Assembly: GCA_025774545.1 (NCBI GenBank)
Contig: JALGVU010000004.1
Coordinates: 2,130 to 66,129, forward strand
Length of the DNA: 64,000 nt
Direction: 5' to 3'
Origin: a bacterium
GTDB taxonomy: Bacteria > Joyebacterota > Joyebacteria > Joyebacterales > Joyebacteraceae
Numbering within the stretch: position 1 is the stretch's first letter; each line of letters starts with the position of its first letter. A program made the translations under genes and the position numbers. The notes under the pieces are model-generated. The model ran no database searches and was not told the DNA's origin. It was given only the letters and a program-made list of their open reading frames with translations. Below, one piece after another: positions 9,022-60,910 of this stretch.

Positions 9022-9084
9022 AGCCTCAGGACCTTAGTGTGTCGCGCCTGGCAGATGCGTCGGTGAATGCTCGTCAGACCGATA

Positions 9085-14224: not shown

Positions 14225-14250
14225 CGGTGGCCGAGTGGGACGGCCGGCGC

Positions 14251-14346
14251 GTGACCGCGTTCGCCGACGGGCCCCCCACGAGTGACCGCGTTCGCCGACG
14301 GGCCCACCACGAAGTGACCGCGTTTGCCGACGAGGCCAGGCACAAA
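14251..14346. repeat. 3 x ~32-nt tandem direct repeat (GTGACCGCGTTCGCCGACGGGCCCmCCACGA)
   Basis: Read directly in the convergent intergenic region between mltD and the downstream lipoprotein gene; the third copy is degenerate. Confidence 0.6.
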
Positions 14347-22545: not shown

Positions 22546-23307
22546 TCAGGGAGCGGAGCGCACGATCTCCGTGAAGCTCTCCGCGTCGAGGCTGGCGCCG
22601 CCCACCAGGACCCCATCGATGTCGGTCTCTGCCATGAGGCTGGCGGCATTCTCCGCCTTCACGCTGCCGCCGTAGAGGATGCTGATCCCGTCGGCGGAAC
22701 GTCCCCCAAACATATCAACAAGACGGCCACGAATCAAGCGGTGAACCTCATTCGCCATCTCGGGCGTCGCGGTCCGTCCCGTCCCGATCGCCCAGACGGG
22801 CTCGTAGGCGAGCACCAGCCGGTGGGCGTGGTCCGGAGCGACCTCCGAAAGCCCGGTCTCGACCTGCCTCCGGACGACCTCCTCCGTTCTGCCCGCCTCC
22901 CTCTCCTCGAGCGACTCGCCCACGCAGACGATCGGCGTGAGGTCTCCCCCGAGCACGGCCTTGAGCTTGCGGTTCACCTCGGCGTCGGTTTCACCGAAGA
23001 TCGAGCGGCGCTCCGAGTGTCCGATGAGCACGAACTCGACCCCGGCCGCCTCGAGCATGGGGACCGACACCTCGCCGGTGAAGGCGCCCCCGGGCTCCCA
23101 GAAGACGTTCTGTGCGCCGATGCCGACGGCGCTCCCCTTTGCCGCGTCGACCGCCGTCTCGATGGCGACCGTGGGAGGACAGACGAGCACCGTGGCTCTC
23201 GTGTCGATCCCGGCGAGGCGGTTCCTGAATAGCTGGATCAGCCGCCGCGTCTCCGCAATCGTCTTGTTCAGTTTCCAGTTCCCGGCGACGATCGTCCTTC
23301 GAGTCAC
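22546..23307 (-). CDS. tpiA: triose-phosphate isomerase
   Basis: VAGNWKLNKT, IGHSERR, AYEPVWAIGTG motifs. Confidence 0.9.
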   Translation of the reverse strand: MTRRTIVAGNWKLNKTIAETRRLIQLFRNRLAGIDTRATVLVCPPTVAIETAVDAAKGSAVGIGAQNVFWEPGGAFTGEVSVPMLEAAGVEFVLIGHSERRSIFGETDAEVNRKLKAVLGGDLTPIVCVGESLEEREAGRTEEVVRRQVETGLSEVAPDHAHRLVLAYEPVWAIGTGRTATPEMANEVHRLIRGRLVDMFGGRSADGISILYGGSVKAENAASLMAETDIDGVLVGGASLDAESFTEIVRSAP

Positions 23308-23332
23308 TGTCTACACTCCGCTCTGGCTCCGG

Positions 23333-24538
23333 TCAGACAGCGTCCGTGAGCGCTTCGACGCCCGGGAGCGGCCTACCCTCGAGGAACATGAGGGACGCGC
23401 CGCCGCCGGTCGAGATGTGCGTCAGCCGGTCGGCGACTCCCGCCTTCGCGATCGCCGCCGCGGAATCCCCTCCCCCGATGATGCTCGTGGCACCCGCGTC
23501 CGTCGACTCGGCAACGGCCTCGGCGATCGCGTTCGTTCCCTCAGCGAAGGGCTCGATCTCGAAGACTCCGAGCGGCCCGTTCCACACGATCGTCTTGGCG
23601 TCACGGACGACGGCGGCGAACGCTTCGATGGTTCGGGGCCCGATGTCGACGCCCTTCCAGCCGGCCGGCACCCCGTCCTCGATCGACACGACCCTGGACG
23701 CGGCGCCCTCCTCGACGTCCTCCGCGGCAACGAGATCGACCGGGAGCGTGATCACCTTCCCCGCGTCGCGCGCCGCCTCGAGGATCGCGCGGGCCGTCTC
23801 GAGCCGGTCCTCCTCGAGGAGCGAGTCGCCCACGGCGAAGCCCTGGGCCTTCAGGAACGTGAAGGCCATGCCGCCGCCGACCAGGAACGTGTCGACCTTG
23901 GGCAAGAGATTCTCGATGACCCCAATCTTGTCTGACACCTTCGCGCCGCCCAGGATCGTGACGTAGGGCGGTTCCGGGGATTCCGTCGCCTGGGCAAGAT
24001 GGCGGAGCTCGTTCTCCATGAGGAAGCCCATCGCCCGTTCCTCGAAGTGGGCCGTCACACCGACGGTCGAGGCGTGTGCGCGATGCGCGGTGCCGAACGC
24101 GTCGTCGACGTAGACGTCGCCCATCCGGGCGAGCCGGAAGGCGAAGTCGGGCTCGTTCTTCGTCTCGCCGCGGTGGAACCTGAGGTTCTCGAGGAGCAGG
24201 ACGTCGCCGTTCCCCATCCGGGCCACCAGCCCCTCGGCCGTGTCGCCCACGCAGTCGGGGGCCATGGTCACGCCGAGTCCGAGGAGTTCGGCCAGGCGTG
24301 CCGCCACGGGCCGGAGCCTCATGGCGTCGACGAGCTCGCCCTTGGGCCTCCCGAGGTGCGACGCGAGGACCGCCTTGCCGCCCGCGTCCACGATGTGCCT
24401 CACGGTCGGGAGCGCGCTCCGGATCCTCGTGTCGTCCGTGATCTCTCCCCTGTCGTTCAGGGGGACGTTGAAGTCGACGCGGGTGAGCACGCGCCTGCCC
24501 TCAACGGCGAGGTCGTTCACGTGCAGCTTCTGCGTCAT
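23333..24538 (-). CDS. pgk: phosphoglycerate kinase
   Basis: Full-length PGK with conserved N-domain (RVDFNVP) and C-terminal GGGAS motif. Confidence 0.9.
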   Translation of the reverse strand: MTQKLHVNDLAVEGRRVLTRVDFNVPLNDRGEITDDTRIRSALPTVRHIVDAGGKAVLASHLGRPKGELVDAMRLRPVAARLAELLGLGVTMAPDCVGDTAEGLVARMGNGDVLLLENLRFHRGETKNEPDFAFRLARMGDVYVDDAFGTAHRAHASTVGVTAHFEERAMGFLMENELRHLAQATESPEPPYVTILGGAKVSDKIGVIENLLPKVDTFLVGGGMAFTFLKAQGFAVGDSLLEEDRLETARAILEAARDAGKVITLPVDLVAAEDVEEGAASRVVSIEDGVPAGWKGVDIGPRTIEAFAAVVRDAKTIVWNGPLGVFEIEPFAEGTNAIAEAVAESTDAGATSIIGGGDSAAAIAKAGVADRLTHISTGGGASLMFLEGRPLPGVEALTDAV

Positions 24539-24548
24539 ACGCCGTTCC

Positions 24549-25553
24549 TCACTTCCGGGCGACCAGCTTCATCATGTCGACCATGCGCGCGGCGTAGCCC
24601 GCCTCGTTGTCGTACCAGCCGAAGATCTTCACGAGGTCTCCGCCCTGGACCTTCGTCAGGAGGCTGTCGAAGATGCAGGAGTGCCGGTCGCCGATGATGT
24701 CGATTGAGACAATGGGTTCGTCGGTGAATCCGAGGTAGCCCTTGAGTGAACCCTCCTTCGACGCCTTCAGGAAGGCGGCGTTGATCTCCTCGGCGGTCGT
24801 CTTCTTCTCGAGCTGGACGGTGAAGTCGACGATCGAGCCGTCCGGCGTCGGGACGCGGATCGCCATCCCGTCGAGCTTGCCCTTGAGCTCAGGCATGACG
24901 ATGGTGATGGCCTTCGCGGCTCCCGTCGTCGTGGGGATCATCGAGACGGCGGCCGCGCGGGCCCGCCTCAGGTCCTTGTGGGGGAAGTCGAGGATCCTCT
25001 GGTCGCTCGTGTAGCCGTGGATCGTCGTCATGAGGCCCCGGACGATGCCAAAGTTGTCCAGAAGGACCTTGACCATCGGCGCCGCGCAGTTCGTCGTGCA
25101 CGAGGCCGTGGAGATGATGTCGTGCTTGTCCTGATCGTAGTCGCCGTCGTTGACGCCCATCACGATCGAGATGTCCGGCTCCTTCGCGGGCGCCGAGATC
25201 ATGACCTTCCCCGCGCCGGCGGTGAGGTGCTTCGAGGCCCCCGCGCGGTCCCTGAACTTGCCGGTCGACTCGATGACGACGTCGACACCGAGCTCCTTCC
25301 ACGGAAGGCCGGCGGGGTCCTTCTCGGAGTAGATCTTGAACCGGTCCCCGTTGACGACGATCTCGTCGCCCTCGACCGTGACGTCGCCGTCGAAGCGCCC
25401 GTGGACCGAGTCGTACTTGAACAGGTGCGCAAGCGTCGCCGCGTCCGTGAGATCGTTCACCGCGACGAGGTTGAAGTCGGGATTGTCCTTGGCGGTCCGG
25501 AGGACGAGCCTGCCGATGCGGCCGAATCCATTGATCGCGTAGTTGAGAGTCAA
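24549..25553 (-). CDS. gap: glyceraldehyde-3-phosphate dehydrogenase
   Basis: INGFGRIGR Rossmann motif and ASCTTNCAAP catalytic Cys motif. Confidence 0.9.
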   Translation of the reverse strand: MTLNYAINGFGRIGRLVLRTAKDNPDFNLVAVNDLTDAATLAHLFKYDSVHGRFDGDVTVEGDEIVVNGDRFKIYSEKDPAGLPWKELGVDVVIESTGKFRDRAGASKHLTAGAGKVMISAPAKEPDISIVMGVNDGDYDQDKHDIISTASCTTNCAAPMVKVLLDNFGIVRGLMTTIHGYTSDQRILDFPHKDLRRARAAAVSMIPTTTGAAKAITIVMPELKGKLDGMAIRVPTPDGSIVDFTVQLEKKTTAEEINAAFLKASKEGSLKGYLGFTDEPIVSIDIIGDRHSCIFDSLLTKVQGGDLVKIFGWYDNEAGYAARMVDMMKLVARK

Positions 25554-25563
25554 CGTGAACCTC

Positions 25564-26487
25564 CTAGATCTTCCCGGTCGACCCGAACAGCTCCATCTTC
25601 GATTTGACCACTTCCTTCATGCCTTCTCGCGCCGCGGCCAGGATCTTCCTTGGATCGAAAACCTCCGGCGTCTCCGCGAGAACCTGCCGGACGCGGGCGG
25701 TGAACGCAAGTCTGAGATCGGTGTCGATGTTGACCTTCGCGATGCCGTGCGCAACGGCCTCCCTGATGCTCTCGGGAGGCACGCCCCTGGCGCCTGGGAG
25801 CACCGCTCCGTAGCGCTGGGCCAGTCCGAGGACGTCGGGCGGCACGGCGGACGCCCCGTGCAGCACGAGAGGCACGGCGACGCGCTCGGCGATCTTCCTC
25901 AGTCTGTCGATCGCGAGCTTGGGCTCAGACTTGAACTTGTAGGCGCCGTGCGAGGTGCCGATGGCGACCGCGAGGGAGTCGCAGCCGGTTCGCTCCACGA
26001 ACTCGCGGGCCTCATCGGGGTCCGTGTAGGTGGCCTCAGACGCCGCGACCGCAATCTCGTCCTCGATGCCCATGAGCCTGCCGAGCTCCGCCTCGACCGA
26101 GACGCCGCGAGGCGCCGCCATCTCGACGACCTCCTTCGTGACACGCACGTTCTCCTCGAACGGCAGGTGAGATCCGTCGATCATGACGGAACTCCACCCG
26201 TGCTCGAGGCAGCTCCGGACCACGTCGAGATCGGTGCCGTGGTCGAGGTGGAGCGCGGCGGGCACGCCGGCGCGCTCCGCGAGATCCTCAACCATGAAGC
26301 GGATCTGCTCGTGGCCGGCGTAGGTGATCGCCGATTGCGACGTCGCCACCATCACGGGCGATCGCATCTCGGAGGCCGCCTCGAAGACGGCCTGCGTGAT
26401 CTCCAGGTTGCTCGTGTTGAACGCGCCCACGGCGTAGCCGTCGGCTCGGGCCGGCGCGAGGATGTCCTTGCCGGTGACGAGCGTCAC
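25564..26487 (-). CDS. fba: class II fructose-/tagatose-bisphosphate aldolase
   Basis: Class II FBA N-terminal GAFN motif, metal-binding His residues (LHLDHG), 307 aa. Confidence 0.8.
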   Translation of the reverse strand: MTLVTGKDILAPARADGYAVGAFNTSNLEITQAVFEAASEMRSPVMVATSQSAITYAGHEQIRFMVEDLAERAGVPAALHLDHGTDLDVVRSCLEHGWSSVMIDGSHLPFEENVRVTKEVVEMAAPRGVSVEAELGRLMGIEDEIAVAASEATYTDPDEAREFVERTGCDSLAVAIGTSHGAYKFKSEPKLAIDRLRKIAERVAVPLVLHGASAVPPDVLGLAQRYGAVLPGARGVPPESIREAVAHGIAKVNIDTDLRLAFTARVRQVLAETPEVFDPRKILAAAREGMKEVVKSKMELFGSTGKI

Positions 26488-26542
26488 GTCCTGTGTCCCC
26501 TCCGCGTTCGGGTTCCTGTGGTGATCCCGGTCGTTCGACGGC

Positions 26543-27592
26543 CTATCCGAAGAACGTCCGCGCGACCTCGTAGAGCTCCGAGTCGACCCGCTTGAGCGAT
26601 TCGGTCGCGTGCGACATCTCGATCGGGATGATCCTGTCGCCGGTGACGCTCGCCATCTTGCCGAAATCGCGTTCCTGGACGAGGTCGGCCGCCAGCACGC
26701 CGAAGCGAGTGCCGAGCACCCGATCGAAGGCCGTGGGCGTGCCGCCCCGCTGGATGTATCCGAGCACGCTCACGCGCGTCTCGTACCCGGTGTCGGCCTC
26801 GATGGCCCTCGCGAGCTCGTTTCCGATGCCGCCCAGCCTCACGTGACCGAACGCGTCGGTCCCGCCCTGCTTCACGACGAGCCCGTGGTTCTCGCCGTCC
26901 TCTCCCTTGACGGGGAACTCAGCGCCCTCGGCGACCACGACGATGCTGAAGTTCTTCCCGCGCCCGTGGCGCTTTCGGATGACGTCGCAGACCTCCTCGA
27001 GCGTGAACGGTATCTCGGGGATCAGGATCAGATCGGCGCCTCCGGCGATCCCCGCCTTGACGGCGATCCAGCCGGTGTGGCGTCCCATGACCTCGACCAC
27101 GACGACGCGGTTGTGCGATTCCGCGGTCGTGTGGAGGCGGTCGATGGCCTCGGTCGCGATGTGGACGGCAGTGTCGAAGCCGAACGTGAAGTCGGTGCCG
27201 CTGATGTCGTTGTCGATCGTCTTGGGCACTCCGACGATCGGCAGCCCTTCCTGGTAGAGCCGGTAGCCGACCCCGAGCGTGTCCTCACCGCCCACGGCGA
27301 TCAGCCCGGCGAGTTCGTCGCTCTCGAACTGCCGCTTGATCGCCTCCGGTCCGCCTTCGGTCTTGTACGGGTTCGTCCTCGACGTCCCCAGAATCGTGCC
27401 TCCGCGCGGGAGGATCCCGGACACCTCGTCCATTCCGAGCGGCAGCGTGTTCCCGTGCATCACACCCGCCCAGCCGTATCGGTACCCCAGGACCTGTCCC
27501 CCGTACTTGCCGATGGTGCGACGCACGATCGCGCGGATCACGGCGTTCAGTCCGGGGCAGTCGCCCCCACCGGTCAGAACTCCGACCTTCAT
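26543..27592 (-). CDS. pfkA: 6-phosphofructokinase (group III, actinobacterial-type; ATP- or PPi-dependent). The ORF extends to 27847 but the conserved start is MKVGVLTGGGDCPGLN
   Basis: GGDCPGLNAVIRA N-terminal motif, GGDGT-like and PFK core; ATG at 27592 chosen to match the conserved N-terminus. Confidence 0.8.
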   Translation of the reverse strand: MKVGVLTGGGDCPGLNAVIRAIVRRTIGKYGGQVLGYRYGWAGVMHGNTLPLGMDEVSGILPRGGTILGTSRTNPYKTEGGPEAIKRQFESDELAGLIAVGGEDTLGVGYRLYQEGLPIVGVPKTIDNDISGTDFTFGFDTAVHIATEAIDRLHTTAESHNRVVVVEVMGRHTGWIAVKAGIAGGADLILIPEIPFTLEEVCDVIRKRHGRGKNFSIVVVAEGAEFPVKGEDGENHGLVVKQGGTDAFGHVRLGGIGNELARAIEADTGYETRVSVLGYIQRGGTPTAFDRVLGTRFGVLAADLVQERDFGKMASVTGDRIIPIEMSHATESLKRVDSELYEVARTFFG

Positions 27593-27678
27593 GTCGTCCT
27601 CCGTGTTCGTGTCGCTGAGCGAGCGGGCTCGCGAGGCCTGCTCAGATCGAAGATGGTAGACTCGTCTCGCTCCGGATG

Positions 27679-28515
27679 TCAACCGCTTTTCCCCGAGCCC
27701 GTGTGCTCTTCGGGCACGCCGCGCCCCGCGGGCAGGCTCGGGCTCCGCGATCGTCTCCCGGCGCCCGAGCGGTGCGCTCCCTCCCCGCCGCTCGAACTCC
27801 CCGTCCGTTCCGGGACCCGGACTCGGCGGGCCGCGACGGCCAGGCACGCGACCGACGAGGCGTCGGCTTCGGCCAGCGCGTCCCGGGCGGCCCGCATCGT
27901 GGCGCCGGTCGTCACGACGTCGTCGAGGAGCAGAAGGCGCCGTCCCCGCGTGAGCGCGCGCACGCCCAGGAAGGCTCCCCGGACGTTGACCTCCCTCTCG
28001 CGCCGGCCGAGGCGAGCCTGACTCCTCGTCGATCGCGCGCGGACGAGAGCGCCCGGGATCACGGGAAGATCAAGGAGTCGCGCGAGGGATAGCGCGATGA
28101 GCTCGGCCTGGTTGAAGCCGCGCTCGCGCCGCCTCGTTCGGTGGAGCGGCACGGGCACGACGGCGTCGATCCCGGACGGGACGGCGACGCGCACGTGAGG
28201 AGCGACGAGGGCCGCGAGATCACCGGCGATCGAGGTGCGGCCGTCGTACTTGAGGGCGCGAATCAGCTCGCGGGCCGGCCCCTCGAAGTCCGCGACGTGC
28301 CACACGACGAGCGGCCCCGCTTCGACCTCGCAGAGCGCGGAGTCCGGGGCAACGAGGAAGGCTCGCGAGCGGGTCGCGATCGCCCGCAGGCAGAGGGCGC
28401 AGAGGTGCTTCTCCGGCGCGTCGAGTTGCCCGCCGCACGCGAGGCAGGAGTCCGGGAAGATGAACCCGAGAATCGCGGCGAGCGCGCGGGACGAGACTCG
28501 TTCGAACGTGGTCAC
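27679..28515 (-). CDS. comFC: ComF family phosphoribosyltransferase-domain protein (ComFC)
   Basis: N-terminal double Zn-ribbon (CLACG...CALC), C-terminal PRTase motif LLLLDDVVTTGATM. Confidence 0.7.
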   Translation of the reverse strand: MTTFERVSSRALAAILGFIFPDSCLACGGQLDAPEKHLCALCLRAIATRSRAFLVAPDSALCEVEAGPLVVWHVADFEGPARELIRALKYDGRTSIAGDLAALVAPHVRVAVPSGIDAVVPVPLHRTRRRERGFNQAELIALSLARLLDLPVIPGALVRARSTRSQARLGRREREVNVRGAFLGVRALTRGRRLLLLDDVVTTGATMRAARDALAEADASSVACLAVAARRVRVPERTGSSSGGEGAHRSGAGRRSRSPSLPAGRGVPEEHTGSGKSG

Positions 28516-52353: not shown

Positions 52354-52539
52354 GGCGCACAACCTCCGTGGTGGAGTCGACACCCGCCGTCGGGGTCGCC
52401 ACCTCCGCGCCGTCCCGCGGTCCATCCTGGTTCTGGTGCGGCGGGGTGGCGCAGGACAGGGGCACCTCGCCCATCCGGCGGCACACACAAATCACATCCT
52501 AGCAACCGGTCGGAGGTCTGTCAAATGCTTTCGTAGAGG

Positions 52540-53433
52540 TCACTTGCCGGGCCTGTAGAGGTACTGCGCCCCCAGGTTCGACGCAGGACGCTCGAGGGCT
52601 CGGCTCGCTGCGCCCGCCAGCATGTCCCAGAGCGTCAACTGCCTACGCCTGACCGGCTCCTGCACCCGGGGGGCTCCCTCGATCCCCCCCATTCTCCCCG
52701 CCACGGCGATCGCGTCCTCGAGCGTGCCGAGGCCGTCGACCAGCCCGGCCGCGAGCGCCTGGCGCCCCGACATGATGCGTCCGTCGGCGACGGCTCGGAC
52801 TTCGTCGATCGACATGTCGCGCTCGAGCGCGACCGTCTCGACGAACTGATCGTGGATGTCGTCGATCGTCGTCTGGAGGAGCTCACGCTCCTTCTCGGTG
52901 AGGGTCCTGCTCCAGGTCCCGGTGTCCTTGAACTCGCCGCTCTTGATCGTCTCGAAGCTCAGGCCGATCTTCTCGAAGAGCTCCTCCATGATCGTGAACG
53001 ACATGATCACACCGATGCTCCCGGTGAGCGTCCCCGGGTTTGCGAGCACGCTGTCTGCCGGGCAGGCCACGTAGTATGCTCCGGAAGCGGCCACGGATCC
53101 CATGGAGGCTACGACGGGCAGTCCCCCGTCCCGTATCTCGACGAGCTTCTCGTACATCTCCTGTGACGCGGCAACGCCTCCTCCCGGGCTGTCGAGCCGG
53201 AGCACGATCGCGCGGATTCCGGGATCGTCCGCCATGGTATCGAGATCGTCGACGACGACCCTGGCGTCAGCGATCAGCCCCTCGATCCTCACGAGCCCGA
53301 CCCGCGCCCCGTACGACGGCAACGAGATCCTCTGGCCGAGGAGCGATTCGATGGTGATGAGCGTGATGAGGAAGATGACGAGAATCGCGACGATCCCCGC
53401 AAGCCAGCCCCAGATGCATCCCTTCCGTGTCAT
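52540..53433 (-). CDS. sppA: signal peptide peptidase SppA (S49 family, 36K type)
   Basis: N-terminal TM, S49 catalytic Ser region (GSVAASGAYY) and Lys dyad context. Confidence 0.8.
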   Translation of the reverse strand: MTRKGCIWGWLAGIVAILVIFLITLITIESLLGQRISLPSYGARVGLVRIEGLIADARVVVDDLDTMADDPGIRAIVLRLDSPGGGVAASQEMYEKLVEIRDGGLPVVASMGSVAASGAYYVACPADSVLANPGTLTGSIGVIMSFTIMEELFEKIGLSFETIKSGEFKDTGTWSRTLTEKERELLQTTIDDIHDQFVETVALERDMSIDEVRAVADGRIMSGRQALAAGLVDGLGTLEDAIAVAGRMGGIEGAPRVQEPVRRRQLTLWDMLAGAASRALERPASNLGAQYLYRPGK

Positions 53434-53472: not shown

Positions 53473-54348
53473 CTACCCCTTTCCCAGTGCCTTCTGAACC
53501 TCTCTGATCACCGCCTGCACGATCGCTTCGTCCGGCGACCCTTGACCGCTGGTCCGCGGTGGAGCCGCCGGCCCGGCTCCCGCCGTCGATGGGGTCTCCT
53601 GGTCGGCCGTCGTCCGAGCGGGCGGCGACGTTCGAGCCTGGCTCTCCTTCTCCTCGCTGTCTGAGGTGTCGCAGGCTCCGCAGGAGAAACAGCTTGCAGC
53701 TCCGTCGGCGAGACCGAGCTTCTCACGCACGTCGAGGAGCTTCCTGACCTCATCCCGCGTCAGAGGAGACGCGCCGCCGAGTATCCTGGCCGAGAGAGTG
53801 ATCTCGGCGAAGTGCTCCACGGTCTCGAGGCGGAAGTACGCCCGGTCGATGTCCGCACCGAGCGTCAGGACGCCGTGGTTCCGGAGCAGCAGCGCGTTGT
53901 AGTTCCCGATGAAGGCGTCGATCGACTCGGGGACCTCGGGCGTCGAGGGCGTCGCGTAGTCCGTGAGCGGCACCTGCCCGAGCGTCAGGATCACCTCGGG
54001 GAGCACGCACTGGGCGAGCGGTACTCCGGCCACGGCGAAGCCGGTGGCGCGCGGCGGGTGCGCGTGGACGATCGCGTCGACGTCTCGCCGTCGCTCGTAG
54101 ACGAAGAGGTGCATCGGGAGCTCCGAGGACGGCGCGCGCGCGCCCGAGATCTGCCGGCCCCGGGCGTTCACGATCGCGAGCTCCTCCAGACGAAGGAAGC
54201 CCTTCGAGACACCGGTCGGCGTCACCAGAATCCTGTCGTCGGACAATCTGACGCTCAGGTTGCCGTCGTTGGCGGCGACGTAACCCCGCTGCCAGATGCG
54301 GCGGCCGATCTCGACGATCTGGCGCCTGGCCTCGAACTCGGACGGCAC
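53473..54348 (-). CDS. class II aldolase/adducin family protein (fuculose-/rhamnulose-1-phosphate aldolase-like) with C-terminal linker + amphipathic helix (putative BMC encapsulation peptide)
   Basis: Class II aldolase Zn-binding His pattern (HAHP ... H); C-terminal Ser/Thr/Pro/Ala-rich linker followed by terminal helix DEAIVQAVIREVQKAL. Confidence 0.8.
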   Translation of the reverse strand: MPSEFEARRQIVEIGRRIWQRGYVAANDGNLSVRLSDDRILVTPTGVSKGFLRLEELAIVNARGRQISGARAPSSELPMHLFVYERRRDVDAIVHAHPPRATGFAVAGVPLAQCVLPEVILTLGQVPLTDYATPSTPEVPESIDAFIGNYNALLLRNHGVLTLGADIDRAYFRLETVEHFAEITLSARILGGASPLTRDEVRKLLDVREKLGLADGAASCFSCGACDTSDSEEKESQARTSPPARTTADQETPSTAGAGPAAPPRTSGQGSPDEAIVQAVIREVQKALGKG

Positions 54349-54445
54349 GGGATCGCTCCTCAGGGGTCGCCGGCGGCACGCGGCCGGCGGCGGTGACGTT
54401 TCCTGTCGGCTGGGCCGGCCGAGCGCCGGCCCCCCGGCGGCGGGA

Positions 54446-54718
54446 CTACTCCTCGACGTCGATGCTGTCGATGACGCCGACGATGACGGTGCGAATGGGC
54501 GGGTTGTCGAGTCCGGTCACGAGGGCGGCCGAGCCTCCCTCGTCGACCACGAGCACGGTGTCTCCCCTTCCCGCCTGGACCGAGTCGACGGCGAGGATCG
54601 TCTCGTCGAGACTCGTGCCGTCGGGATCGAGCCTCTCGACGATGAGGAGTTTCCGGCCGTTCATCGCGTCGTGATGAACCGTCGAGACGACCTCGCCGAT
54701 GACCCGTCCGATGAACAC
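54446..54718 (-). CDS. BMC vertex protein, EutN/CcmL/PduN family (BMC-P #3), GTG start
   Basis: VFIGRVIGEVVSTVHHDAMNGRKLLIVERL matches Pfam03319 N-terminus; AAGGAG RBS; the ORF-track ORF 54446..55078 is over-extended. Confidence 0.8.
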   Translation of the reverse strand: MFIGRVIGEVVSTVHHDAMNGRKLLIVERLDPDGTSLDETILAVDSVQAGRGDTVLVVDEGGSAALVTGLDNPPIRTVIVGVIDSIDVEE

Positions 54719-54723
54719 GCCGC

Positions 54724-55014
54724 TCACTCCTTGGGGAAGATCGATTCGCCTCCGACGGTCACGTGATCGACGATGCCGACGATCGCCGCGTCCGCGGGAT
54801 TGAACGTGGGACTCAGGGCCTTCGCGGCCTCGCGCGACTTGACGAAGTAGACGAGCTGGCCGGGCGCGGCGCTCACGGTGTCGACCGCGACGAGAGGCGT
54901 CCCCCGCTCCTCGAGGAGGTGCGTGAGGGGCTGGACGACCAACATGCGTTTCCCCGTCAGCGAATCCACCTTCGCGGTCGCCCACACGGTTCCGATCACC
55001 CTCGCCAGGTGCAA
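54724..55014 (-). CDS. BMC vertex protein, EutN/CcmL/PduN family (BMC-P #2)
   Basis: MHLARVIGTVWATAKVDSLTGKRMLVVQPL N-terminus. Confidence 0.8.
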   Translation of the reverse strand: MHLARVIGTVWATAKVDSLTGKRMLVVQPLTHLLEERGTPLVAVDTVSAAPGQLVYFVKSREAAKALSPTFNPADAAIVGIVDHVTVGGESIFPKE

Positions 55015-55028
55015 GGCTGCCTCCGCGC

Positions 55029-55577
55029 CTAGAAGACCTTCGGCCCGAGATCCTCGTGCGGTCTCGGGATGACGACACTCCGGACGAGGTTGCCCCCGCG
55101 CTTCGCGACCGCGAGAGCGGCCTCGGTGGCCGCCTCGACGTCGTAGATCTCGCCGGTCATCGTGAAGAACGCCTTTCCCCCGAGTCCCTTCGCGAGGCGG
55201 ATCTCGATGAGCTTGACCGGCGCGGCCTTCGCGGCCGCGTCGGCCGCGAGGATGCTCGATGCCACCGTGAACGTCTCAACGACGCCGAGCGCGCCGAGGG
55301 CGGACACCTCCGTCGCGCCCAGGATCGCCGGGAAGACGTCAGGGTGGACGTGCGGGATGAAGAGGGTGTCGGCGACGACGTCGCCGCCGACGGCGGCGCC
55401 CCTCTCGAGCGACGCCTCGACCGACGACACGTCACCCGCGACGAGCACCATGAACTTGCCGGGGCAGATCGCGGTTGCCTCCAGGATCTCGACGTCGGCC
55501 GTCTTGGCCATCTCGTCGGTGACCGCGATCCCGATCGCGATGCTGATCGTCTCGACGAGTCCGATGGCTTCCTTCAC
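55029..55577 (-). CDS. tandem-domain BMC shell protein (BMC-T, PduT-like)
   Basis: Two PF00936-like domains (GLVET...VTDEMAKTADVEIL and GVVETFTVASSILAADAAAKAAPVKLIEI); 182 aa. Confidence 0.75.
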   Translation of the reverse strand: MKEAIGLVETISIAIGIAVTDEMAKTADVEILEATAICPGKFMVLVAGDVSSVEASLERGAAVGGDVVADTLFIPHVHPDVFPAILGATEVSALGALGVVETFTVASSILAADAAAKAAPVKLIEIRLAKGLGGKAFFTMTGEIYDVEAATEAALAVAKRGGNLVRSVVIPRPHEDLGPKVF

Positions 55578-55646
55578 GAAGCACTGCCTCCCTCAGGCGC
55601 GATCCCCGTTGGGTCGCGCTCTTCCGCTCCACCGCGCCGTCCCGGC

Positions 55647-56975
55647 TCACGCGGCGATGACGATCTCCTCCGCGGTGATCGATTCGATCGTACCCGCGAT
55701 GCTCGCGTGCACGCGGGCGCCGAGCTTGCCATCGGGGATCTCGCCAACGACGTCCCCTTCGAGCACGCGGTCTCCCTCGGCGACCACCGGCCGCGCGGCG
55801 GCGCCGATGTGCTGGGTCGTTCTGAGGAAGACGCGCGCGGGCTCGAGCCGGCGTTCGTCGAGAGGAGCCGGCCCATCGTACTCCGAGAGCCCCAGTCGCT
55901 GCACGAGCCTCGCTGACGGTATCTGCCGGTACTCGCGCACGTCGTCGGGCTTGAGGTCGGCCCGGCGGTGCGGATTCACCACGCCTCGGCGCGTGAGTTC
56001 GGCCTTGAGGTCCGCGAGGATCCGCCGCGGGCGAATCCCGAGGGGGCACGCGAAGAGCTCGCACATGCCGCACTCGCAGCAGAGGAACGCCGACGTGACG
56101 TGCTCGTGATCCTCGGGCAACGTGTCGTACTGCACGGCCCGCACCGTGCGGTGCGGCTTCAGGTCGTGTCCCAGGAGCGCGCGCGGACAGAGCTCCGTGC
56201 AGGCGAGGCACTGACAGCAGGCCGCCCGCGCGATCCGGAGCATCTGCGCCCGCGACTCGGTCCGCGCGGTCACCATGGTGTGATCCGGCGGAAGCACGAT
56301 GAGCCCGCCGACCGTCTTCGTCAGCGGCACCGCGTGGCTCGACGCGATCGTCCCCATCATCGGACCGCCGACGATCACGGCCGCGTCGTCGACCGTCACG
56401 CCGCCCGCGCGGTCGATGATCTCGCCGATCGGCGTTCCGATCGGCACGGTCAGGGTCGCCGCGGCTGCGACCTCTCCCTGGACGGTCACCATCCTCGAGG
56501 TCACGGGCCGTCCCTCGACCGCGTCTGCGATCTGCGCGAGGGTCGTGACGTTGTTCACGACCACGCCCACGTCGAGCGGGATCCCGCCCTCGGGGACGAC
56601 GCGCCCCGTGACGTCGAAGACCAGCAGGAACTCATCGCCCGCGGGATAGACGTTCTCGAGGAGCTTGAGCTCGATCGCGGAATCGGCCGGCAGAACGCGC
56701 TCGATCGCCTCGCCCGCCCGCCTGTTCTTCCTCTTGACGGCGAGGACCACACGGCTCGCTCCGACCGATTCGGCGAGAAGCTCGAGACCGCGTACGACCC
56801 GATCGGGCCGCGAGACGAGAAGCTCGGTGTCCGACCGGATCAGCGGCTCGCACTCGGCGCCGTTCGCGAGGAGCACGTCCACGTCGGCCCTCGCCTTGAC
56901 GTGCGTCGGGAACCCGCCCCCGCCCGCACCGACGACGCCCGCCTTCTCGATCGCTGTGGCCACCTGATTGTCCAC
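55647..56975 (-). CDS. PduS/RnfC-like NADH-binding flavoprotein with two [4Fe-4S] ferredoxin motifs
   Basis: N-terminal GVVGAGGGGFPTHVKA (RnfC/PduS nucleotide-binding), CCQCLACTELCP and CCECGMCELFACP cluster motifs; C-terminal barrel-like GDRVLEGDVVGEIPDGKLGARVHASIAGTIESI segment. Confidence 0.7.
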   Translation of the reverse strand: MDNQVATAIEKAGVVGAGGGGFPTHVKARADVDVLLANGAECEPLIRSDTELLVSRPDRVVRGLELLAESVGASRVVLAVKRKNRRAGEAIERVLPADSAIELKLLENVYPAGDEFLLVFDVTGRVVPEGGIPLDVGVVVNNVTTLAQIADAVEGRPVTSRMVTVQGEVAAAATLTVPIGTPIGEIIDRAGGVTVDDAAVIVGGPMMGTIASSHAVPLTKTVGGLIVLPPDHTMVTARTESRAQMLRIARAACCQCLACTELCPRALLGHDLKPHRTVRAVQYDTLPEDHEHVTSAFLCCECGMCELFACPLGIRPRRILADLKAELTRRGVVNPHRRADLKPDDVREYRQIPSARLVQRLGLSEYDGPAPLDERRLEPARVFLRTTQHIGAAARPVVAEGDRVLEGDVVGEIPDGKLGARVHASIAGTIESITAEEIVIAA

Positions 56976-57050
56976 GGTTCGTTGCGTCTCCAGGCGCTTC
57001 TGCCGCGTGCCCGCGCGTCCTCGGGGAGCTCGGTCCTCGGGGACGGCGCG

Positions 57051-58484
57051 CTACACGATGCGGAAGTGGTCGACGAGCGTACACCGCCGCTCGCGCGTGA
57101 AGGTGCGCGCGGACGTGAGTCCCTCGCCGGTCGGGCTCGCGATGGTGAACGACGTGAAGCCCTCGCCGCCAAAGCTGAGCCCGGCGAACGACGGCCCGTT
57201 CTTCACGAAGATCGAGACGTCCATGACGCGGGCCATCCGAGAGAGAACATCGATGTTCTTGGAATGGGCCACCGCAGTATGTCCGTAGCCCCGCTCCACC
57301 TCGCGCGCGAAGTCGATCGCCTCGGCGGCCGTCTCGACGGTCACGAGGGGGATGATCGGCATCATCTGCTCCGTCCACACGAGCGGATGGGAGCGATCGG
57401 CGTCGAAGAACGCGATCCTCGCGTCGGAGCGGCACGGGAGGCCCGCCGCATCGAGGATGACGGACACGTTCTTCCCGACGAAGTCCCGCGCGACGGGCGA
57501 GCTCCTCCCCGGTCCCAGGTTCTCCGTCAGGACGAGATCGGTGACACGGTCGACCACGGGCCCCCTGAGCTCGACCGCCCCGGCCTGTCTGAGGGCGTCC
57601 TTCAGGGCGTCCGCGATGGCGCGAACCGCGACGATCTCCTTCTCCGCGATGCACACGATGTTGTTGTCGAGGCTCGCGCCGGCGATGATGTCGCGGGCGG
57701 CCTTCGGCAGATCGGCCGTCTCGTCGACCACGACGGGGGGGTTCCCGGGACCCGCGGCGATCACCTTCTTGCCCGACTGCATGGCGGCCTTGACGACGCC
57801 GGGGCCGCCGGTCACCACGAGAAGCCGGATTCCGGGATGGGACATGACGGCCTGCGCGGTCTCGATCGAGGGCTCGTTCACGGTGTGGAGAAGCGCCCTC
57901 GGTCCCCCGGCCTCCGAGATGGCGCGGTTCAGAATGTCGATCGTCGTCAGAGAGACGACGCGAGCCGACGGATGGGGATTGAAGACGACGGCGTTGCCGC
58001 CGGCGACCATCCCGATGGCGTTGCAGATGATCGTCTCGGACGGGTTCGTCGAGGGGGTGACGGAGCCGATCACGCCGTAGGGCGCATGTTCGACGAGGGT
58101 CAGGCCGTGGTCGCCCGAGTAGGCCGTGGGCGCGAGGTCCTCGAGGCCGGGCGTCTTCGTGATCGCGAGGGTGTTCTTGCGGATCTTGTCCTCGTAGCGC
58201 CCGAGTCCGGTCTCGTCGACGGCGAGCCTCGACAGCCGCTCGACGTTCTCGAGGGCGGCCCGGCGCATCGCATCGATCATGGCGCGGCGTCGCTCGAGCG
58301 GGACGTCGCGGTATTCGAGGAAGCTCGTGCGGGCGGCGGCCGCGGCCGCGTCGACGCTCCCGAGGATACCGCGTCCGTCGAACGGAGGCGGCGCCTGCGG
58401 CGTCTCGAGCGCCTGTCCGCGCGCCGTCAGCTCGTCGAGCACCTTGCCGACGATCGTCTCGATTGAGGGGGCGTCTCTCTCCAC
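57051..58484 (-). CDS. CoA-acylating aldehyde dehydrogenase (EutE/PduP family) with N-terminal amphipathic helix (putative encapsulation peptide)
   Basis: ALDH fold with catalytic Cys (NNIVCIAEKE) and EutE/PduP-like spacing; N-terminal SIETIVGKVLDELTARG helix + Pro-rich linker. Confidence 0.85.
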   Translation of the reverse strand: MERDAPSIETIVGKVLDELTARGQALETPQAPPPFDGRGILGSVDAAAAAARTSFLEYRDVPLERRRAMIDAMRRAALENVERLSRLAVDETGLGRYEDKIRKNTLAITKTPGLEDLAPTAYSGDHGLTLVEHAPYGVIGSVTPSTNPSETIICNAIGMVAGGNAVVFNPHPSARVVSLTTIDILNRAISEAGGPRALLHTVNEPSIETAQAVMSHPGIRLLVVTGGPGVVKAAMQSGKKVIAAGPGNPPVVVDETADLPKAARDIIAGASLDNNIVCIAEKEIVAVRAIADALKDALRQAGAVELRGPVVDRVTDLVLTENLGPGRSSPVARDFVGKNVSVILDAAGLPCRSDARIAFFDADRSHPLVWTEQMMPIIPLVTVETAAEAIDFAREVERGYGHTAVAHSKNIDVLSRMARVMDVSIFVKNGPSFAGLSFGGEGFTSFTIASPTGEGLTSARTFTRERRCTLVDHFRIV

Positions 58485-58587
58485 GTGTGAACGATCCTCG
58501 ATGAGGAACGGCGATCCCGAGAGGGGCGAGCCTCACGGACCCGCGTCGCGGCCCGTCGGCCCTTGCTCCCCGCCTGGGATCGCCGTC

Positions 58588-58878
58588 CTAGGACTTGTTA
58601 TAGACGATGCTCCCGTCGACCTCGACCGAGTCGACGATGGCCATGATCACGGCATCGGCGGGGCGGTCCTGCGTGATCTCCGTCTGACGAGCCGAGCTGC
58701 CGCTGGCGTAGAGCACGACCTCCCCGGGACCCGCCCCGACGGCGTCGATCGCGACGACGAACGCGCCGGTCTCGCCGCCCTCCAGATCGATCTGCTTGAC
58801 GATCTGGAGCTTCGTCCCGACCAGCTTCTCGTTCTTGACGGTCGAGACGACCGTCCCCACGACCTTCCCGAGATTCAT
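58588..58878 (-). CDS. BMC vertex protein, EutN/CcmL/PduN family (BMC-P #1)
   Basis: [31 protein letters not shown]-terminus. Confidence 0.8.
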
Positions 58879-58972
58879 GCCGCTTCTCCCGCATCGCGCG
58901 ACTCTCCCGCCCCGGGGTCGTGCTGTCCACGCACGGGGAGCGAGTACTCGGCGCGCCTCGTCGGTGTCCTGG

Positions 58973-59269
58973 CTACTTCGATCTGACGTTCGCGGTCTTC
59001 CCTATCGGCAGCACGTCCTCGAGGCTCGCGTGCGGCTTCGGGATCACGTGCGTCGTGAGAAGCTCGCCGACCTTGCTGGCCGCCGCCATGCCCGCGTCGA
59101 CCGCGGCGCGCACTGCCGCCACGTCCCCACGGACGACGGCCGTGACGTATCCCCCGCCGACCTTCTCGTACCCCACCAACGTCACCTTCGCCGCCTTGAC
59201 CATGGCGTCGGACGCCTCCACCATGCCGATGAAACCTCTCGTCTCGATCATGCCGAGGGCCTCGCCCAT
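58973..59269 (-). CDS. BMC hexamer shell protein (BMC-H, PF00936); ORF extends to 59323
   Basis: [57 protein letters not shown] canonical BMC-H. Confidence 0.85.
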
Positions 59270-59344
59270 CGCAACCTCCTCGAGCGAATCCTGGATCTTC
59301 GTATCGCCTGCGCGTCTGCCCACGCGGCCGCCGTCGGCGCGCCG

Positions 59345-59617
59345 TCAGGTGAGCAGAATGTCCTCGAGCATCTCATGCGGCGCGGGGATCACGTGGTACG
59401 AGACGAGCTCGCCGACCTTCGACGCGGCCTCGGCGCCGGCCGCCACCGCCGCCTTCACCGCCCCCACGTCTCCCCGAACCAGCGACGTGACGTATCCCCC
59501 GCCGATCTTCTCGTACTTCGTCAGGGTGACGTTCGCCGTCTTGACCATCGCGTCGGTCGCCTCGATGAGGCCGATGACGCCCTTGGTCTCTACCATTCCT
59601 AGAGCAAGACCGGGCAA
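59345..59617 (-). CDS. BMC hexamer shell protein (BMC-H, PF00936)
   Basis: [58 protein letters not shown]. Confidence 0.85.
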
Positions 59618-59657
59618 ATGGACCCCCTCCGTCGGTAGCTGACGTACATCCCCGAGC

Positions 59658-60305
59658 CTACCGGAGTATCTCGATCGTCATCGGCGACCGAACGTCGGCC
59701 GCGTTGCCGTCGTCCGTGTCGACGTGAAGCTCGAGGGCCGCCGTCTTCCCAACTCGGATGAGCACGCTCTCGAGGACGAGCGCCCTCACGCCCGCGAACC
59801 GCACCCGGACCAGATCGCCGTCCTTCACACGGCGGATCGTCGCGTCGCGCTCGGTCATGTGGATGTGACGCGTGGCCCGTATGGCCCCTTCCCTGAGCGC
59901 CACGGTTCCGGCCGGGCCGACGAGCGTGAGAGGCTCGCTGCCCGCGAGGTCGCCGGAGCGCCGAACGGGCGGGTCGATCCCCAGCCGGATTGCGTCGGTC
60001 CTCGAAAGCTCCACCTGGGTGTAGTTCCTCGTCGGTCCGAGGATCCTCACCCCCTCGATCGCGCGCATGGAGCGCCCGACGATCGTCACCCTCTGCTCCG
60101 AGGCAAACTCACCAGGCTGGCCGAGGTCCCGGAGCTTCGTGAGGGCGAACCCGTCGCCGTAGAGCGCGTCGAGGCCGCCCCGGGAGATGTGCGCGTGCCG
60201 GGCAGACACGTTGACCGGAATCCCGGTGGCGTCGGATCGGCGTGCCGGCTCGTCTCCCTGGAGCCTCCGGAGGACCTCCGATGCTATCCTCTCGACGTCC
60301 TCCAT
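59658..60305 (-). CDS. pduL: phosphate acyltransferase PduL (PTAC) with N-terminal amphipathic helix. ORF extends to 60527; ATG at 60305 with GGAGGG RBS
   Basis: Duplicated PduL motifs with catalytic His (VSARHAHIS ... ATRHIHMT); N-terminal [14 protein letters not shown] helix. Confidence 0.8.
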
Positions 60306-60393
60306 CCCTCGACCCTCCGCTGCGCGCACCTGCGGGAGACAAACCTCCCCGCTGCGGGCGCGGAAGTCCACTCTCGGCCCTGAGTTGAGCGCG

Positions 60394-60422
60394 AGTCTAG
60401 CAGAGGGTCCTGAGACTGTCAA
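60394..60422 (-). promoter_or_regulatory. candidate sigma70-like promoter for the BMC operon (TTGACA-17-TAGACT), ~90 nt upstream of pduL
   Basis: Minus strand: TTGACA at 60422-60417, 17-nt spacer, TAGACT at 60399-60394. Confidence 0.3.
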
Positions 60423-60500: not shown

Positions 60501-60550
60501 GCCAACGAAGAAACCCCCGGCTGACACCTTGTGGGAGGACCAGCCGGGGG
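60501..60550 (-). terminator. Rho-independent terminator-like hairpin (10-bp stem CCCCCGGCTG/CAGCCGGGGG, 17-nt loop) followed on the minus strand by TTTCTTCGTT
   Basis: Perfect inverted repeat 60514-60523 / 60541-60550; U-rich tail on the minus strand only; lies between the glycosyltransferase genes and the BMC operon. Confidence 0.4.
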
Positions 60551-60910
60551 CTCTTCAGTTCAGACGCGTTCCCCGCGTGTGCCGTGCAACAGGTACGGTA
60601 CGACTCATTCTCTGGATGGGGATCAGCCCACGACCTGGTGAATGCTCACGAGCATGGCAGGGAACGCATCATGCCCCTTGGTATCTGGAGCATCTAACGA
60701 AGCAGGATCCGTGCCATCATGAGGAAGCGGTGCGAGGGGCGGGCTCCGCCGTTCAGGCCCAAAGGCTGGGCCGTTTCGGGCGGGTGGCCGATGTTGCAGC
60801 GCCCGCTGTGGGCGCTATGAAGCCCTCGTTTCTGCAACGGGCGGCGACGTAGGAGCGGTCTCCCGACGGCGAGGCGGCAGCGGTCAGTCGGTGGTGAGGT
60901 AGAGGAACGA

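Follow-up and report, generated by a model that had tools for sequence, protein, structure and literature searches.

A conserved ten-gene locus predicted to encode an aldolase-associated metabolosome with an MNdh/BMC-T^SE module

We describe here a cluster of genes on a 64-kb stretch of bacterial DNA from contig JALGVU010000004.1 (hereafter the window, by which the whole of the stretch analysed is meant; ~68% G+C). The ten genes, at 53473-60305 of the minus strand, are co-directional, closely packed and high in third-position GC. They probably encode a catabolic bacterial microcompartment (BMC), or metabolosome, of the aldolase-associated class, operating by the pathway set out below, and we assign this reading a probability of about three in four. 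Aldolase-associated metabolosomes in which NAD+ is recycled through the MNdh/BMC-T^SE module are a known kind, of which the locus can be regarded as a new example and arguably as a new subtype.

From the gene content, the intact motifs, the architecture of the encapsulation peptides (EPs), the MNdh/BMC-T^SE signature and the conservation of the locus, we infer the following enzymatic steps and substrate. A ketose-1-phosphate would enter the shell and be cleaved by an encapsulated aldolase of the FucA fold, yielding a short-chain aldehyde and dihydroxyacetone phosphate (DHAP), the latter leaving to glycolysis. An encapsulated aldehyde dehydrogenase (AldDh) would oxidise the aldehyde to acyl-CoA with the production of NADH, and PduL would convert acyl-CoA to acyl-phosphate, such that CoA is recycled inside the shell. 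NAD+ would be regenerated by MNdh, a homologue of PduS, with electrons passing via two [4Fe-4S] clusters to a further [4Fe-4S] cluster, which Cys38 would hold within the pore of the trimeric shell protein BMC-T^SE, and from there to the outside. The acyl-phosphate is expected to yield ATP through the action of a kinase encoded elsewhere in the genome. The shell itself would be built from two paralogous hexamers (BMC-H), the BMC-T^SE trimer and three divergent pentamers (BMC-P), with transcription proceeding from a conserved sigma-70-type promoter in the absence of a linked regulator.

In the direction of transcription the gene order is PduL-H-H-P-AldDh-MNdh-T-P-P-aldolase, where H stands for BMC-H, P for BMC-P and T for BMC-T shell proteins (Table 1). 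Intergenic gaps do not exceed ~100 nt, the single overlapping pair being P2 and P3 (4 nt, GTGA), and a GGAGG-like Shine-Dalgarno sequence is found 5' of most starts. All ten proteins score above the Pfam gathering thresholds in profile searches. Every gene identity proposed in an earlier note on this DNA is therefore upheld, including those of the shell proteins: both BMC-H, the BMC-T and all three BMC-P pass the thresholds of PF00936 or PF03319, providing the complete set of hexamers, tandem trimer and pentamers that had been claimed. The same note counted eleven genes, where we find ten, as does its own list. It also placed the end of the locus at 60422. This position does mark the -35 hexamer of the conserved promoter, but the PduL coding sequence starts at the ATG at 60305, and the N terminus so defined is kept in orthologues.

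Table 1. Positions and supporting evidence for the genes and promoter of the locus and for the adjoining peptidase gene.
Feature	Position in window	Strand	Evidence
PduL-type phosphotransacylase, 215 aa	59658-60305	minus	PF06130, E = 3e-66
BMC-H hexamer 1, 90 aa	59345-59617	minus	PF00936, E = 8e-29; KTAN / PAPH edge motifs
BMC-H hexamer 2, 98 aa	58973-59269	minus	PF00936, E = 1e-29; KAAK / PKPH edge motifs
BMC-P pentamer 1 (P1), 96 aa	58588-58878	minus	PF03319, E = 6e-29
CoA-acylating aldehyde dehydrogenase AldDh, 477 aa, EutE/PduP type	57051-58484	minus	PF00171, E = 8e-36
MNdh (PduS homologue, PduS/RnfC-like)	55647-56975	minus	PF01512 (E = 4e-41) + PF10531 + PF13534 + PF13375
BMC-T^SE, PduT-type tandem-domain trimer, 182 aa	55029-55577	minus	2 x PF00936, E = 2e-42
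BMC-P pentamer 2 (P2), 96 aa	54724-55014	minus	PF03319, E = 2e-26
BMC-P pentamer 3 (P3), 93 aa	54446-54727	minus	PF03319, E = 2e-23; start overlaps P2 stop
Class II (FucA-fold) aldolase-family enzyme, 291 aa	53473-54348	minus	PF00596, E = 2e-47
S49 (SppA-like) signal-peptide peptidase	52540-53433	minus	PF01343, E = 2e-49
Sigma-70-type promoter of the operon	60394-60422	minus	Consensus scan: TTGACA, 17-nt spacer, TG-n-TAGACT

The genes provide what is expected of a metabolosome, namely a shell of BMC-H and BMC-P proteins, an EP-bearing AldDh of family PF00171 and a PduL-type phosphotransacylase (PTAC) that also carries an EP. The core leading from aldehyde via acyl-CoA to acyl-phosphate, as read from the locus originally, is borne out by the intact motifs of both enzymes. 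PduL scores 231 bits against NCBIfam PRK15070 (cut-off 209) and has two RH(A/I)H motifs, at residues 36 and 146, while AldDh scores 644 bits against the EutE/PduP-type model PRK15398 (cut-off 403) and has its catalytic Cys278 within the motif CIAEKE. The N terminus of AldDh is an amphipathic helix, IETIVGKVLDEL, conserved in 19 orthologues and followed by a variable linker; that of PduL is likewise a conserved amphipathic helix, of 12 residues, with a linker that varies in length and sequence among its 19 orthologues. Helix-plus-linker ends of this kind are the standard architecture of encapsulation peptides, and all three core enzymes (AldDh, PduL and the aldolase, which bears its EP at the C terminus) are therefore predicted to lie in the lumen.

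Among the shell proteins, BMC-H 1 is 79-93% identical across the orthologous loci. BMC-H 2, which has an ATG start preceded by a GGAGG Shine-Dalgarno sequence, is 70% identical to BMC-H 1. The pentamers are more diverse: P1, encoded upstream of AldDh, has only 36-39% identity to P2 and P3, and its closest solved structure is the BMC-P of Haliangium ochraceum (5V74, E = 7e-29). P2 and P3 are positional orthologues of the P-P pair found downstream of BMC-T in HO/SPU/MIC7-like loci.

Statements of absence in what follows refer to the locus together with ~55 further open reading frames (ORFs), spanning the whole 64 kb, that were scanned against Pfam. The scan extends to the window what had been noted for the locus itself, that there is no B12 diol dehydratase, EutBC, glycyl-radical enzyme or alcohol dehydrogenase. 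RpiB, DeoC and genes of the fucose and rhamnose pathways are likewise not found among these ORFs. In the remainder of the window the scan found only housekeeping genes, namely those of glycolysis (PFK, FBA, GAPDH, PGK, TPI), of cell shape and the cell wall (MreBC, PBP2, RodA), EF-P, AccC and glycosyltransferases.

The lack of an alcohol dehydrogenase corresponds to a known design and does not represent a gap, because the MNdh/BMC-T^SE pair would regenerate NAD+ by the export of electrons. The MNdh of the locus consists of PF01512 (residues 9-150), PF10531 (162-208), the 4Fe-4S dicluster domain PF13534 (252-314) and, at the C terminus, PF13375 (378-437). It contains GAGGGGFP at residue 16, corresponding to the motif GxGGxGFP, and two [4Fe-4S] motifs of the form CxxCxxCxxx(x)CP, at residues 253-264 and 299-311. 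The closest solved structure is RnfC (7ZC6), and RnfC structures align over their residues 122-417 only; PF13375 (RnfC_N) is C-terminal in MNdh and N-terminal in RnfC, which amounts to a circular permutation. The BMC-T gene begins 69 nt past the MNdh stop, and its product has the pore motif CPGK (Cys38-Pro-Gly-Lys). The closest solved structures of this protein are of PduT type (3NWG, 3e-47, and 3N79), the structural BMC-T of H. ochraceum (5DIH) matching at only 1e-25.

In the recent definition of MNdh (Sutter et al. 2024, PNAS, PMC11626177), the protein is recognized by the order PF01512-PF10531-4Fe-4S dicluster-PF13375, permuted with respect to RnfC. The same study found that MNdh and BMC-T genes adjoin in 97% of loci and that the motif CP(G/S)K is universal in BMC-T proteins next to MNdh, and it identified 361 BMC loci in which the MNdh/BMC-T^SE pair occurs without an alcohol dehydrogenase. 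In the model proposed there, MNdh oxidises lumenal NADH and the electrons exit via an Fe-S cluster of the shell protein. The domain order, the immediate adjacency and the CP(G/S)K motif are all present in the locus described here, and by these sequence features its PduS-like protein and Cys-pore BMC-T match the published NAD+-recycling module. That identity had been missed in the earlier note.

The remaining enzyme is the class II aldolase, and its identification as the sole candidate source of aldehyde at the locus stands. The catalytic domain of the protein (residues 1-215) is followed by a CxxCxxC motif (220-226), then by a disordered linker and, at the C terminus, by an encapsulation peptide (274-288). 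Glu76, His95, His97 and His158, which we take to correspond to E73, H92, H94 and H155 of Escherichia coli FucA, are invariant in 40 homologues, as are the phosphate-site residues Thr43, Gly46 and Ser75. The metal ligands, catalytic Glu and phosphate-site residues of the class II aldolase/adducin fold are thus all retained. In comparison with the catalytic core there are ~75 extra C-terminal residues, comprising a variable low-complexity linker and then the conserved helix EAIVQAVIREVQKAL. In an AlphaFold2 model the FucA-like core has a predicted local distance difference test (pLDDT) score of >90, residues 227-270 score <50 and the terminal helix (272-287) scores ~80. Because the C-terminal encapsulation peptide is conserved, the aldolase is very probably a lumenal enzyme.

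A further feature of this protein is the sequence CFSCGAC (53671-53691, residues 220-226), in which Cys220, Cys223 and Cys226 are each at least 90% conserved in the 40 homologues. In BMC-associated aldolases of the window clade and of MUF3-like and HO/MIC7-like loci (L082, L071, L033, L059, L067 and L051), a Cys-rich motif, usually C-x2-C-x2-C, separates the catalytic domain from the linker and EP. The region has a low pLDDT of ~50-60 in the model. The motif may serve as a metal, Fe-S or redox site, and in the available part of the catalogue text of Sutter 2021 a Cys motif of BMC aldolases is not mentioned. A homologue of 59% identity from a Bacteroidota-labelled bin (P0102, in L084/L085) has a reduced, C-x2-C form of the motif and a C-terminal EP-like helix. 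Its gene lies away from shell genes and adjoins two GFO_IDH_MocA oxidoreductase genes; it may be a satellite cargo gene, and these neighbours may hint at the sugar pathway.

What this aldolase cleaves is less readily settled. Sequence and fold searches place it at approximately equal distance from FucA, DrdA and YgbL/OtnC. The best Foldseek matches are to YgbL/OtnC, DrdA and FucA, with a TM-score of ~0.9 normalised to the target, and identity to the solved structures is 32% for YgbL/OtnC, 29% for DrdA (6BTD/6BTG) and 24-28% for FucA. Among NCBIfam profiles the highest score is 132 bits, for OtnC decarboxylase (cut-off 250), followed by 118 bits for haloarchaeal ribulose-1-phosphate aldolase (cut-off 300), and the FucA equivalogs TIGR01086, NF004527, NF005302 and NF040649 score 76-114 bits against cut-offs of 250-400. 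The protein is not assigned to FucA on these scores, nor on its identity to solved FucA. Retro-aldol cleavage of a ketose-1-phosphate is nevertheless the most economical reading, because the metal, acid/base and phosphate sites are conserved and because it is the only one that would feed AldDh. The logic of a sugar-phosphate-cleaving metabolosome, as set out in the earlier note, is reasonable and agrees with published proposals. Its preference for fuculose-1-phosphate or rhamnulose-1-phosphate survives as one of several options, on a protein that falls under the cut-offs of all equivalogs. Both L-fuculose-1-phosphate or L-rhamnulose-1-phosphate, giving lactaldehyde, and a pentulose-1-phosphate or 5-deoxypentulose-1-phosphate, giving glycolaldehyde or acetaldehyde, are tentative candidates of equal weight, and it is only slightly less likely that the substrate is something else. 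The terms fucose, rhamnose and fuculose were not found in the accessible portion of the supplements to the 2024 paper describing Candidatus (Ca.) Effluviviacota. As regards the second product, a glycolytic cluster on the minus strand at 22546-28069 (PFK, class II FBP aldolase, GAPDH, PGK and TPI, then SecG) encodes enzymes that would process DHAP from the BMC aldolase. These are housekeeping genes located 27-31 kb from the locus, and so no specific link to the BMC is indicated.

Conservation of the locus was assessed by an ortholog search with AldDh against one genome per GTDB species. This returned 19 loci (L001-L019) with AldDh at 66-79% identity, the sources of which are labelled Candidatus Eisenbacteria, 'Effluviviaceae' or unclassified metagenome-assembled genome (MAG) bins from seeps and hydrothermal sites. 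Six are on cut contigs. The 13 that are long enough to show the full order all have GT2-PduL-H-H-P-AldDh-MNdh-T-P-P-aldolase-S49 peptidase-HU, and in nine of them a flavin reductase gene follows HU. At least 13 species-level genomes share the operon together with its promoter and flanks, and protein identity is 55-93% over L001-L019. We propose that the operon has been vertically inherited in Ca. Effluviviacota/Eisenbacteria, and the names of the MAGs in question (BHB10, Meg22, SY70 and Bin_501) suggest that they belong to the dataset from which Ca. Effluviviacota (GTDB VGIX01) was defined. More than 100 homologues of the aldolase, of 250-320 aa and 55-78% identity, were found in metagenomes.

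The 2024 paper on Ca. Effluviviacota reports a phylum G+C of 59-70% and a common root with Eisenbacteria and Latescibacteria. Shell genes and a 'PduP' were noted by its authors, who considered that toxic aldehydes might be sequestered, and ethanolamine-utilisation genes were reported in some MAGs. In the available parts of that paper the BMC is not typed, and aldolase, PduL and PduS are not mentioned.

More distant relatives of AldDh (50-64% identity) occur in Acidobacteriota, Bdellovibrionota, Planctomycetota, Chloroflexota, Spirochaetota, Verrucomicrobiota and Myxococcota. Nearly all have H-P-AldDh-T-P-P as their backbone, in some cases with the aldolase after it, and PduL and MNdh are usually lacking. 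This is, as far as gene order can tell, the HO-type II/MIC7/SPU-like backbone of Sutter 2021, in which the genome carrying one such locus (L056) is catalogued as HO type. In a neighbour-joining tree of AldDh, two Eisenbacteria loci (L021 and L040) are the sisters of the window clade, with a third Eisenbacteria locus, L033 (H-P-AldDh-T-P-P-aldolase), joining next and AldDh of a MUF3-type Firmicutes locus as an outgroup. In the aldolase tree, the sister group of the window clade contains a MUF3-type aldolase (L082, 52% identity), and HO-like aldolases are more distant. The order at L082 is DeoR-aldolase-H-H-H-PTAC-P-AldDh-MNdh-T-AckA. A mosaic origin may be envisaged, in which an HO/MIC7-like shell-and-AldDh backbone gained PduL, a second BMC-H plus the MNdh/BMC-T^SE module, and in which a MUF3/MIC4-like aldolase was acquired or retained. 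Both trees are distance-based and unbootstrapped, and we therefore treat this scheme as a lead.

A number of observations weigh against the reading of the locus as an aldolase-driven metabolosome. The aldolase falls below every NCBIfam equivalog cut-off. The window contains no sugar kinase or isomerase and no acetate kinase (PF00871), and neither a transporter nor a regulator linked to the locus was found in it, with the consequence that it shows neither how the substrate is supplied nor at which step ATP is made. A literature search found no functional papers for MIC4, MIC7, MUF2, MUF3 or HO. Finally, the main loci of the sister Eisenbacteria L021 and L040 (locus coordinates ~7750-14300) run PduL-H-H-P-AldDh-MNdh-T-P and then directly into the HU gene, so that the aldolase and the third BMC-P are both missing and the aldolase may not be the only source of aldehyde. 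By analogy with HO type I, the two missing genes may be located on a satellite locus.

The most likely alternative concerns the substrate only. The organelle may salvage nucleosides or by-products of S-adenosylmethionine (SAM), the aldolase cleaving D-ribulose-1-phosphate, 5-deoxyribulose-1-phosphate or 5-methylthioribulose-1-phosphate to release glycolaldehyde, acetaldehyde or (methylthio)acetaldehyde. Its function would then be that proposed for SPU/HO-type BMCs, nucleic-acid catabolism, and not the use of fucose and rhamnose associated with the BMC of Planctomycetes/Verrucomicrobia (PVM). The position of AldDh, nested in the H-P-AldDh-T-P-P radiation that includes HO-type and SPU-like loci and with MUF3 AldDh outside it, is in keeping with this, as is the relationship drawn by Sutter 2021 between AldDh of MIC7 and HO and those of SPU3/5/7, which are predicted to handle acetaldehyde. 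The second place of the ribulose-1-phosphate aldolase profile and the structural closeness of DrdA, a 5-deoxyribulose-1-phosphate aldolase that resembles the protein as much as FucA does, point the same way, and the window lacks genes for fucose or rhamnose. However, all of the aldolase profile scores are far under their cut-offs, and the nearest aldolases from outside the clade include that of L082, which belongs to a DeoR-regulated locus of the MUF3 type, while MUF2/3 are grouped functionally with PVM by Sutter 2021. True SPU loci, unlike this locus and its window, encode RpiB or DeoC, and we infer that the flux of SAM by-products would seem too small to justify an organelle. On balance we consider salvage doubtful, albeit not far-fetched.

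It is appreciably less probable that the signature enzyme is something other than the aldolase-family protein. The latter would then be a decarboxylase, epimerase, dehydratase or accessory protein, with aldehyde arriving from elsewhere, for example as acetaldehyde from a satellite EutBC-type module or as free aldehydes. Non-aldolase members of the fold do indeed provide both the top-scoring profile (OtnC decarboxylase) and the nearest structure (YgbL), and the main loci of L021 and L040 lack the gene. Satellite modules with EutBC/EutL have been described for the HO, SPU3 and SPU6 types (Sutter 2021), and the ethanolamine-utilisation genes of some Effluviviacota MAGs would be compatible with such a source. 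Yet the OtnC score is half of its cut-off and barely exceeds those of the FucA and ribulose-1-phosphate aldolase profiles, the FucA-type Zn ligands, catalytic Glu and phosphate-site residues are invariant, the EP is conserved, and the gene is found at the end of the operon in all complete Effluviviacota loci. Furthermore, an acylating AldDh does not act on DHAP, the product of OtnC, so that a lumenal decarboxylase would have no role. It is very improbable that the locus is a relic, whether decaying or silent, or that its shell genes serve no working pathway: the lack of a linked regulator, kinase and transporter would fit, but all ten ORFs are intact, mostly with GGAGG-like Shine-Dalgarno sequences and with the expected catalytic residues, their order and sequence are kept at 55-93% identity in at least 13 species-level genomes together with the promoter, and more than 100 close homologues of the aldolase are found in environmental metagenomes.

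The metabolosome proposed here was at first taken for a distinct and novel type, a claim that comparison with the published catalogues does not support. The combination of class II aldolase, AldDh, PduL, PduS/PduT and a triplet of BMC-P is found there, and the same enzyme set is already catalogued for MIC4, MUF2 and MUF3 (Sutter 2021, Nat Commun 12:3809) and for a 'SPU-like' locus of Latescibacteria (Axen 2014, PLoS Comput Biol 10:e1003898). In both studies the aldehyde is proposed to arise from a sugar phosphate through the action of the class II aldolase. We have set the locus beside MIC4 and the Latescibacteria locus by their descriptions and not by sequence, and on this footing its enzyme content is that of MIC4 minus acetate kinase. 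MIC4 shares the AldDh with N-terminal EP, the PTAC, the pfam00596 aldolase and the BMC-P triplet, as well as a PduS homologue beside a PduT-type BMC-T with a pore Cys in one operon, and its hosts include phyla of the FCB group. It differs in having a pfam00871 acetate kinase, of which there is none in this locus or the window, and in its AldDh, which is described as closest to those of MUF2/MUF3, whereas here that of MUF3 is an outgroup and those of HO/SPU/MIC7-like loci are nearest. The 'SPU-like' locus has AldDH, PduL and PduS, with a class II aldolase replacing DeoC (Axen 2014), and Latescibacteria are a sister phylum that shares a common root with Eisenbacteria and Effluviviacota.

MIC7, reported from Candidatus Eisenbacteria and Latescibacteria (Sutter 2021), comes from the same superphylum and also has AldDh with an N-terminal EP, two BMC-H and the BMC-P triplet. 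It has BMC-T^s, with a PduS homologue and a pore Cys in 2/6 loci, and its backbone H-P-AldDh-T-P-P occurs in the Eisenbacteria loci L033 and L071. The present locus adds PduL, a second upstream BMC-H, MNdh and the aldolase. We considered assigning it to MIC7 on the strength of host group and triplet, but the PduL, MNdh and aldolase that it also encodes set it apart. In the trees of Sutter 2021 the Eisenbacteria example RBG_16_71_46 is a MIC7 with a 'drab' BMC-T, a class without the pore Cys, and no MIC7 'dullTeal' entry was found in the accessible portion of the BMC-T tree of that study.

MUF3 of Clostridia and MUF2 of Gemmatimonadetes share AldDh, PTAC and the pfam00596 aldolase, the aldolase with a C-terminal EP and the other two with N-terminal EPs. 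The likeness extends in the MUF3-type locus L082 to the internal order PTAC-P-AldDh-MNdh-T and to an aldolase, 52% identical, in which CxxCxxC precedes the EP. MUF3 is set apart by its single BMC-P, its three BMC-H, an acetate kinase, the regulator DeoR and a distant AldDh, and MUF2 by fused BMC-H variants and an aldolase that is usually on a satellite locus. The HO type of Haliangium ochraceum, especially type II, resembles the locus in the order H-P-AldDh-T-P-P, the P-P pair being followed by a pfam00596 aldolase, in the N-terminal EP of AldDh and in its BMC-P, which is the best solved relative of P1 (5V74). It differs in lacking PTAC and a pore Cys in BMC-T, in possessing BMC-T^dp and in that PduS/T are rare and on satellite loci only.

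PVM (Erbilgin et al. 2014) has a class II aldolase as signature enzyme together with AldDh, PduL and a shell rich in BMC-P, and the reaction logic is the same, from ketose-1-phosphate to DHAP and aldehyde, then acyl-CoA and acyl-phosphate. It differs in its acetate kinase, DeoR regulator and NAD+ recycler resembling lactate/malate dehydrogenase (Ldh/Mdh), in its host phyla and in the location of MNdh/T^SE, mostly on satellite loci (18/20). The substrate of PVM has been proven experimentally. The locus described here is not placed in the PVM type: the aldolase is present, but PF00871, DeoR and Ldh/Mdh genes are all missing from locus and window, and the host is Effluviviacota/Eisenbacteria-like.

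The control of transcription appears to be unusual. The site upstream of PduL (Table 1) is predicted to act as the promoter of the operon. Its pattern, TTTCCGTTGACA-17-TGnTAGACT, recurs ~85 nt upstream of PduL in 18/19 orthologous loci, and is nearly invariant although proteins of the same genomes are only 55-90% identical. The operon sits amid housekeeping genes in conserved synteny (GT2, the SppA-like S49 peptidase, HU and flavin reductase). The near-invariance of the promoter, the lack of a linked regulator and this conserved synteny together suggest a core-genome BMC, the expression of which would be constitutive or globally controlled, an arrangement unusual for metabolosomes.

At the other end of the operon, the S49 peptidase gene lies 39 nt 3' of the aldolase, in the same direction and with no terminator-like site between, the next promoter-like site being at 52496-52524, before the HU gene. 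All orthologous loci that reach that far (L001-L005, L007, L009-L012, L014 and L016-L019) keep the gene in synteny, and it is missing from the sister loci L021 and L040. The gene may be co-transcribed with the BMC operon, and its product is probably a conserved neighbour, not a component of the BMC.

The gap upstream of the operon was considered as the site of an eleventh gene, a riboswitch or a tRNA, and was found to hold no tRNA and no Rfam family at gathering score. It does contain a non-coding element of ~105 nt (60564-60669, minus strand), between the GT2 gene and the BMC promoter, with a DNA identity of 80-94% across all Effluviviacota loci, above that of neighbouring genes. The predicted fold is one elongated hairpin with 31 pairs, of which six have compensatory double changes, and is followed at ~60508-60565 by a GC-rich terminator-like hairpin with structure kept and sequence varying. 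The element matches no Rfam family at gathering score, the weak similarity to 6S RNA amounting to 25 bits against a gathering score of 46. A covariance model finds it in the Eisenbacteria locus L033 (59 bits), ~4.4 kb upstream of the BMC genes, and its distance from PduL is 1.8 kb in L007 and L008. The element probably represents a small RNA gene in its own right, of no assigned family.

The presence of BMC genes in the phylum (2024) and the aldolase-type enzyme set (Axen 2014, Sutter 2021) were known already, and the locus neither opens a new category nor offers a direct handle on a long-standing question. What makes it valuable as a test system is that it is compact. Aldolase-associated metabolosomes (MIC4, MIC7, MUF2/3, HO and ACI) are widespread, and only PVM has been studied experimentally. 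Ten closely packed genes would make a convenient system for heterologous shell assembly, could reveal what BMC class II aldolases cleave, and could be used to test the export of electrons across the shell without interference from an alcohol dehydrogenase. As to ecology, the locus sharpens the 2024 description of Ca. Effluviviacota, in which PduP and shell genes were noted and the BMC left untyped. A bolder proposal, to which we give little credence at present, is that of a regulator-less core-genome organelle throughout this newly named phylum that would act on a ketose-1-phosphate other than those of fucose or rhamnose, would export all of its reductant and would have a redox-coupled Cys motif. 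If true, the BMC would be part of the core genome of these bacteria and not an inducible module for a niche substrate, and the CxxCxxC of the aldolase would be a metal or Fe-S site coupling that enzyme to the MNdh/BMC-T^SE redox module. A chain for extracellular electron transfer that is based on flavins has been reported for Ca. Effluviviacota, and the exported electrons could, on the same proposal, feed such a chain, which would make of the metabolosome an organelle of electrogenic fermentation.

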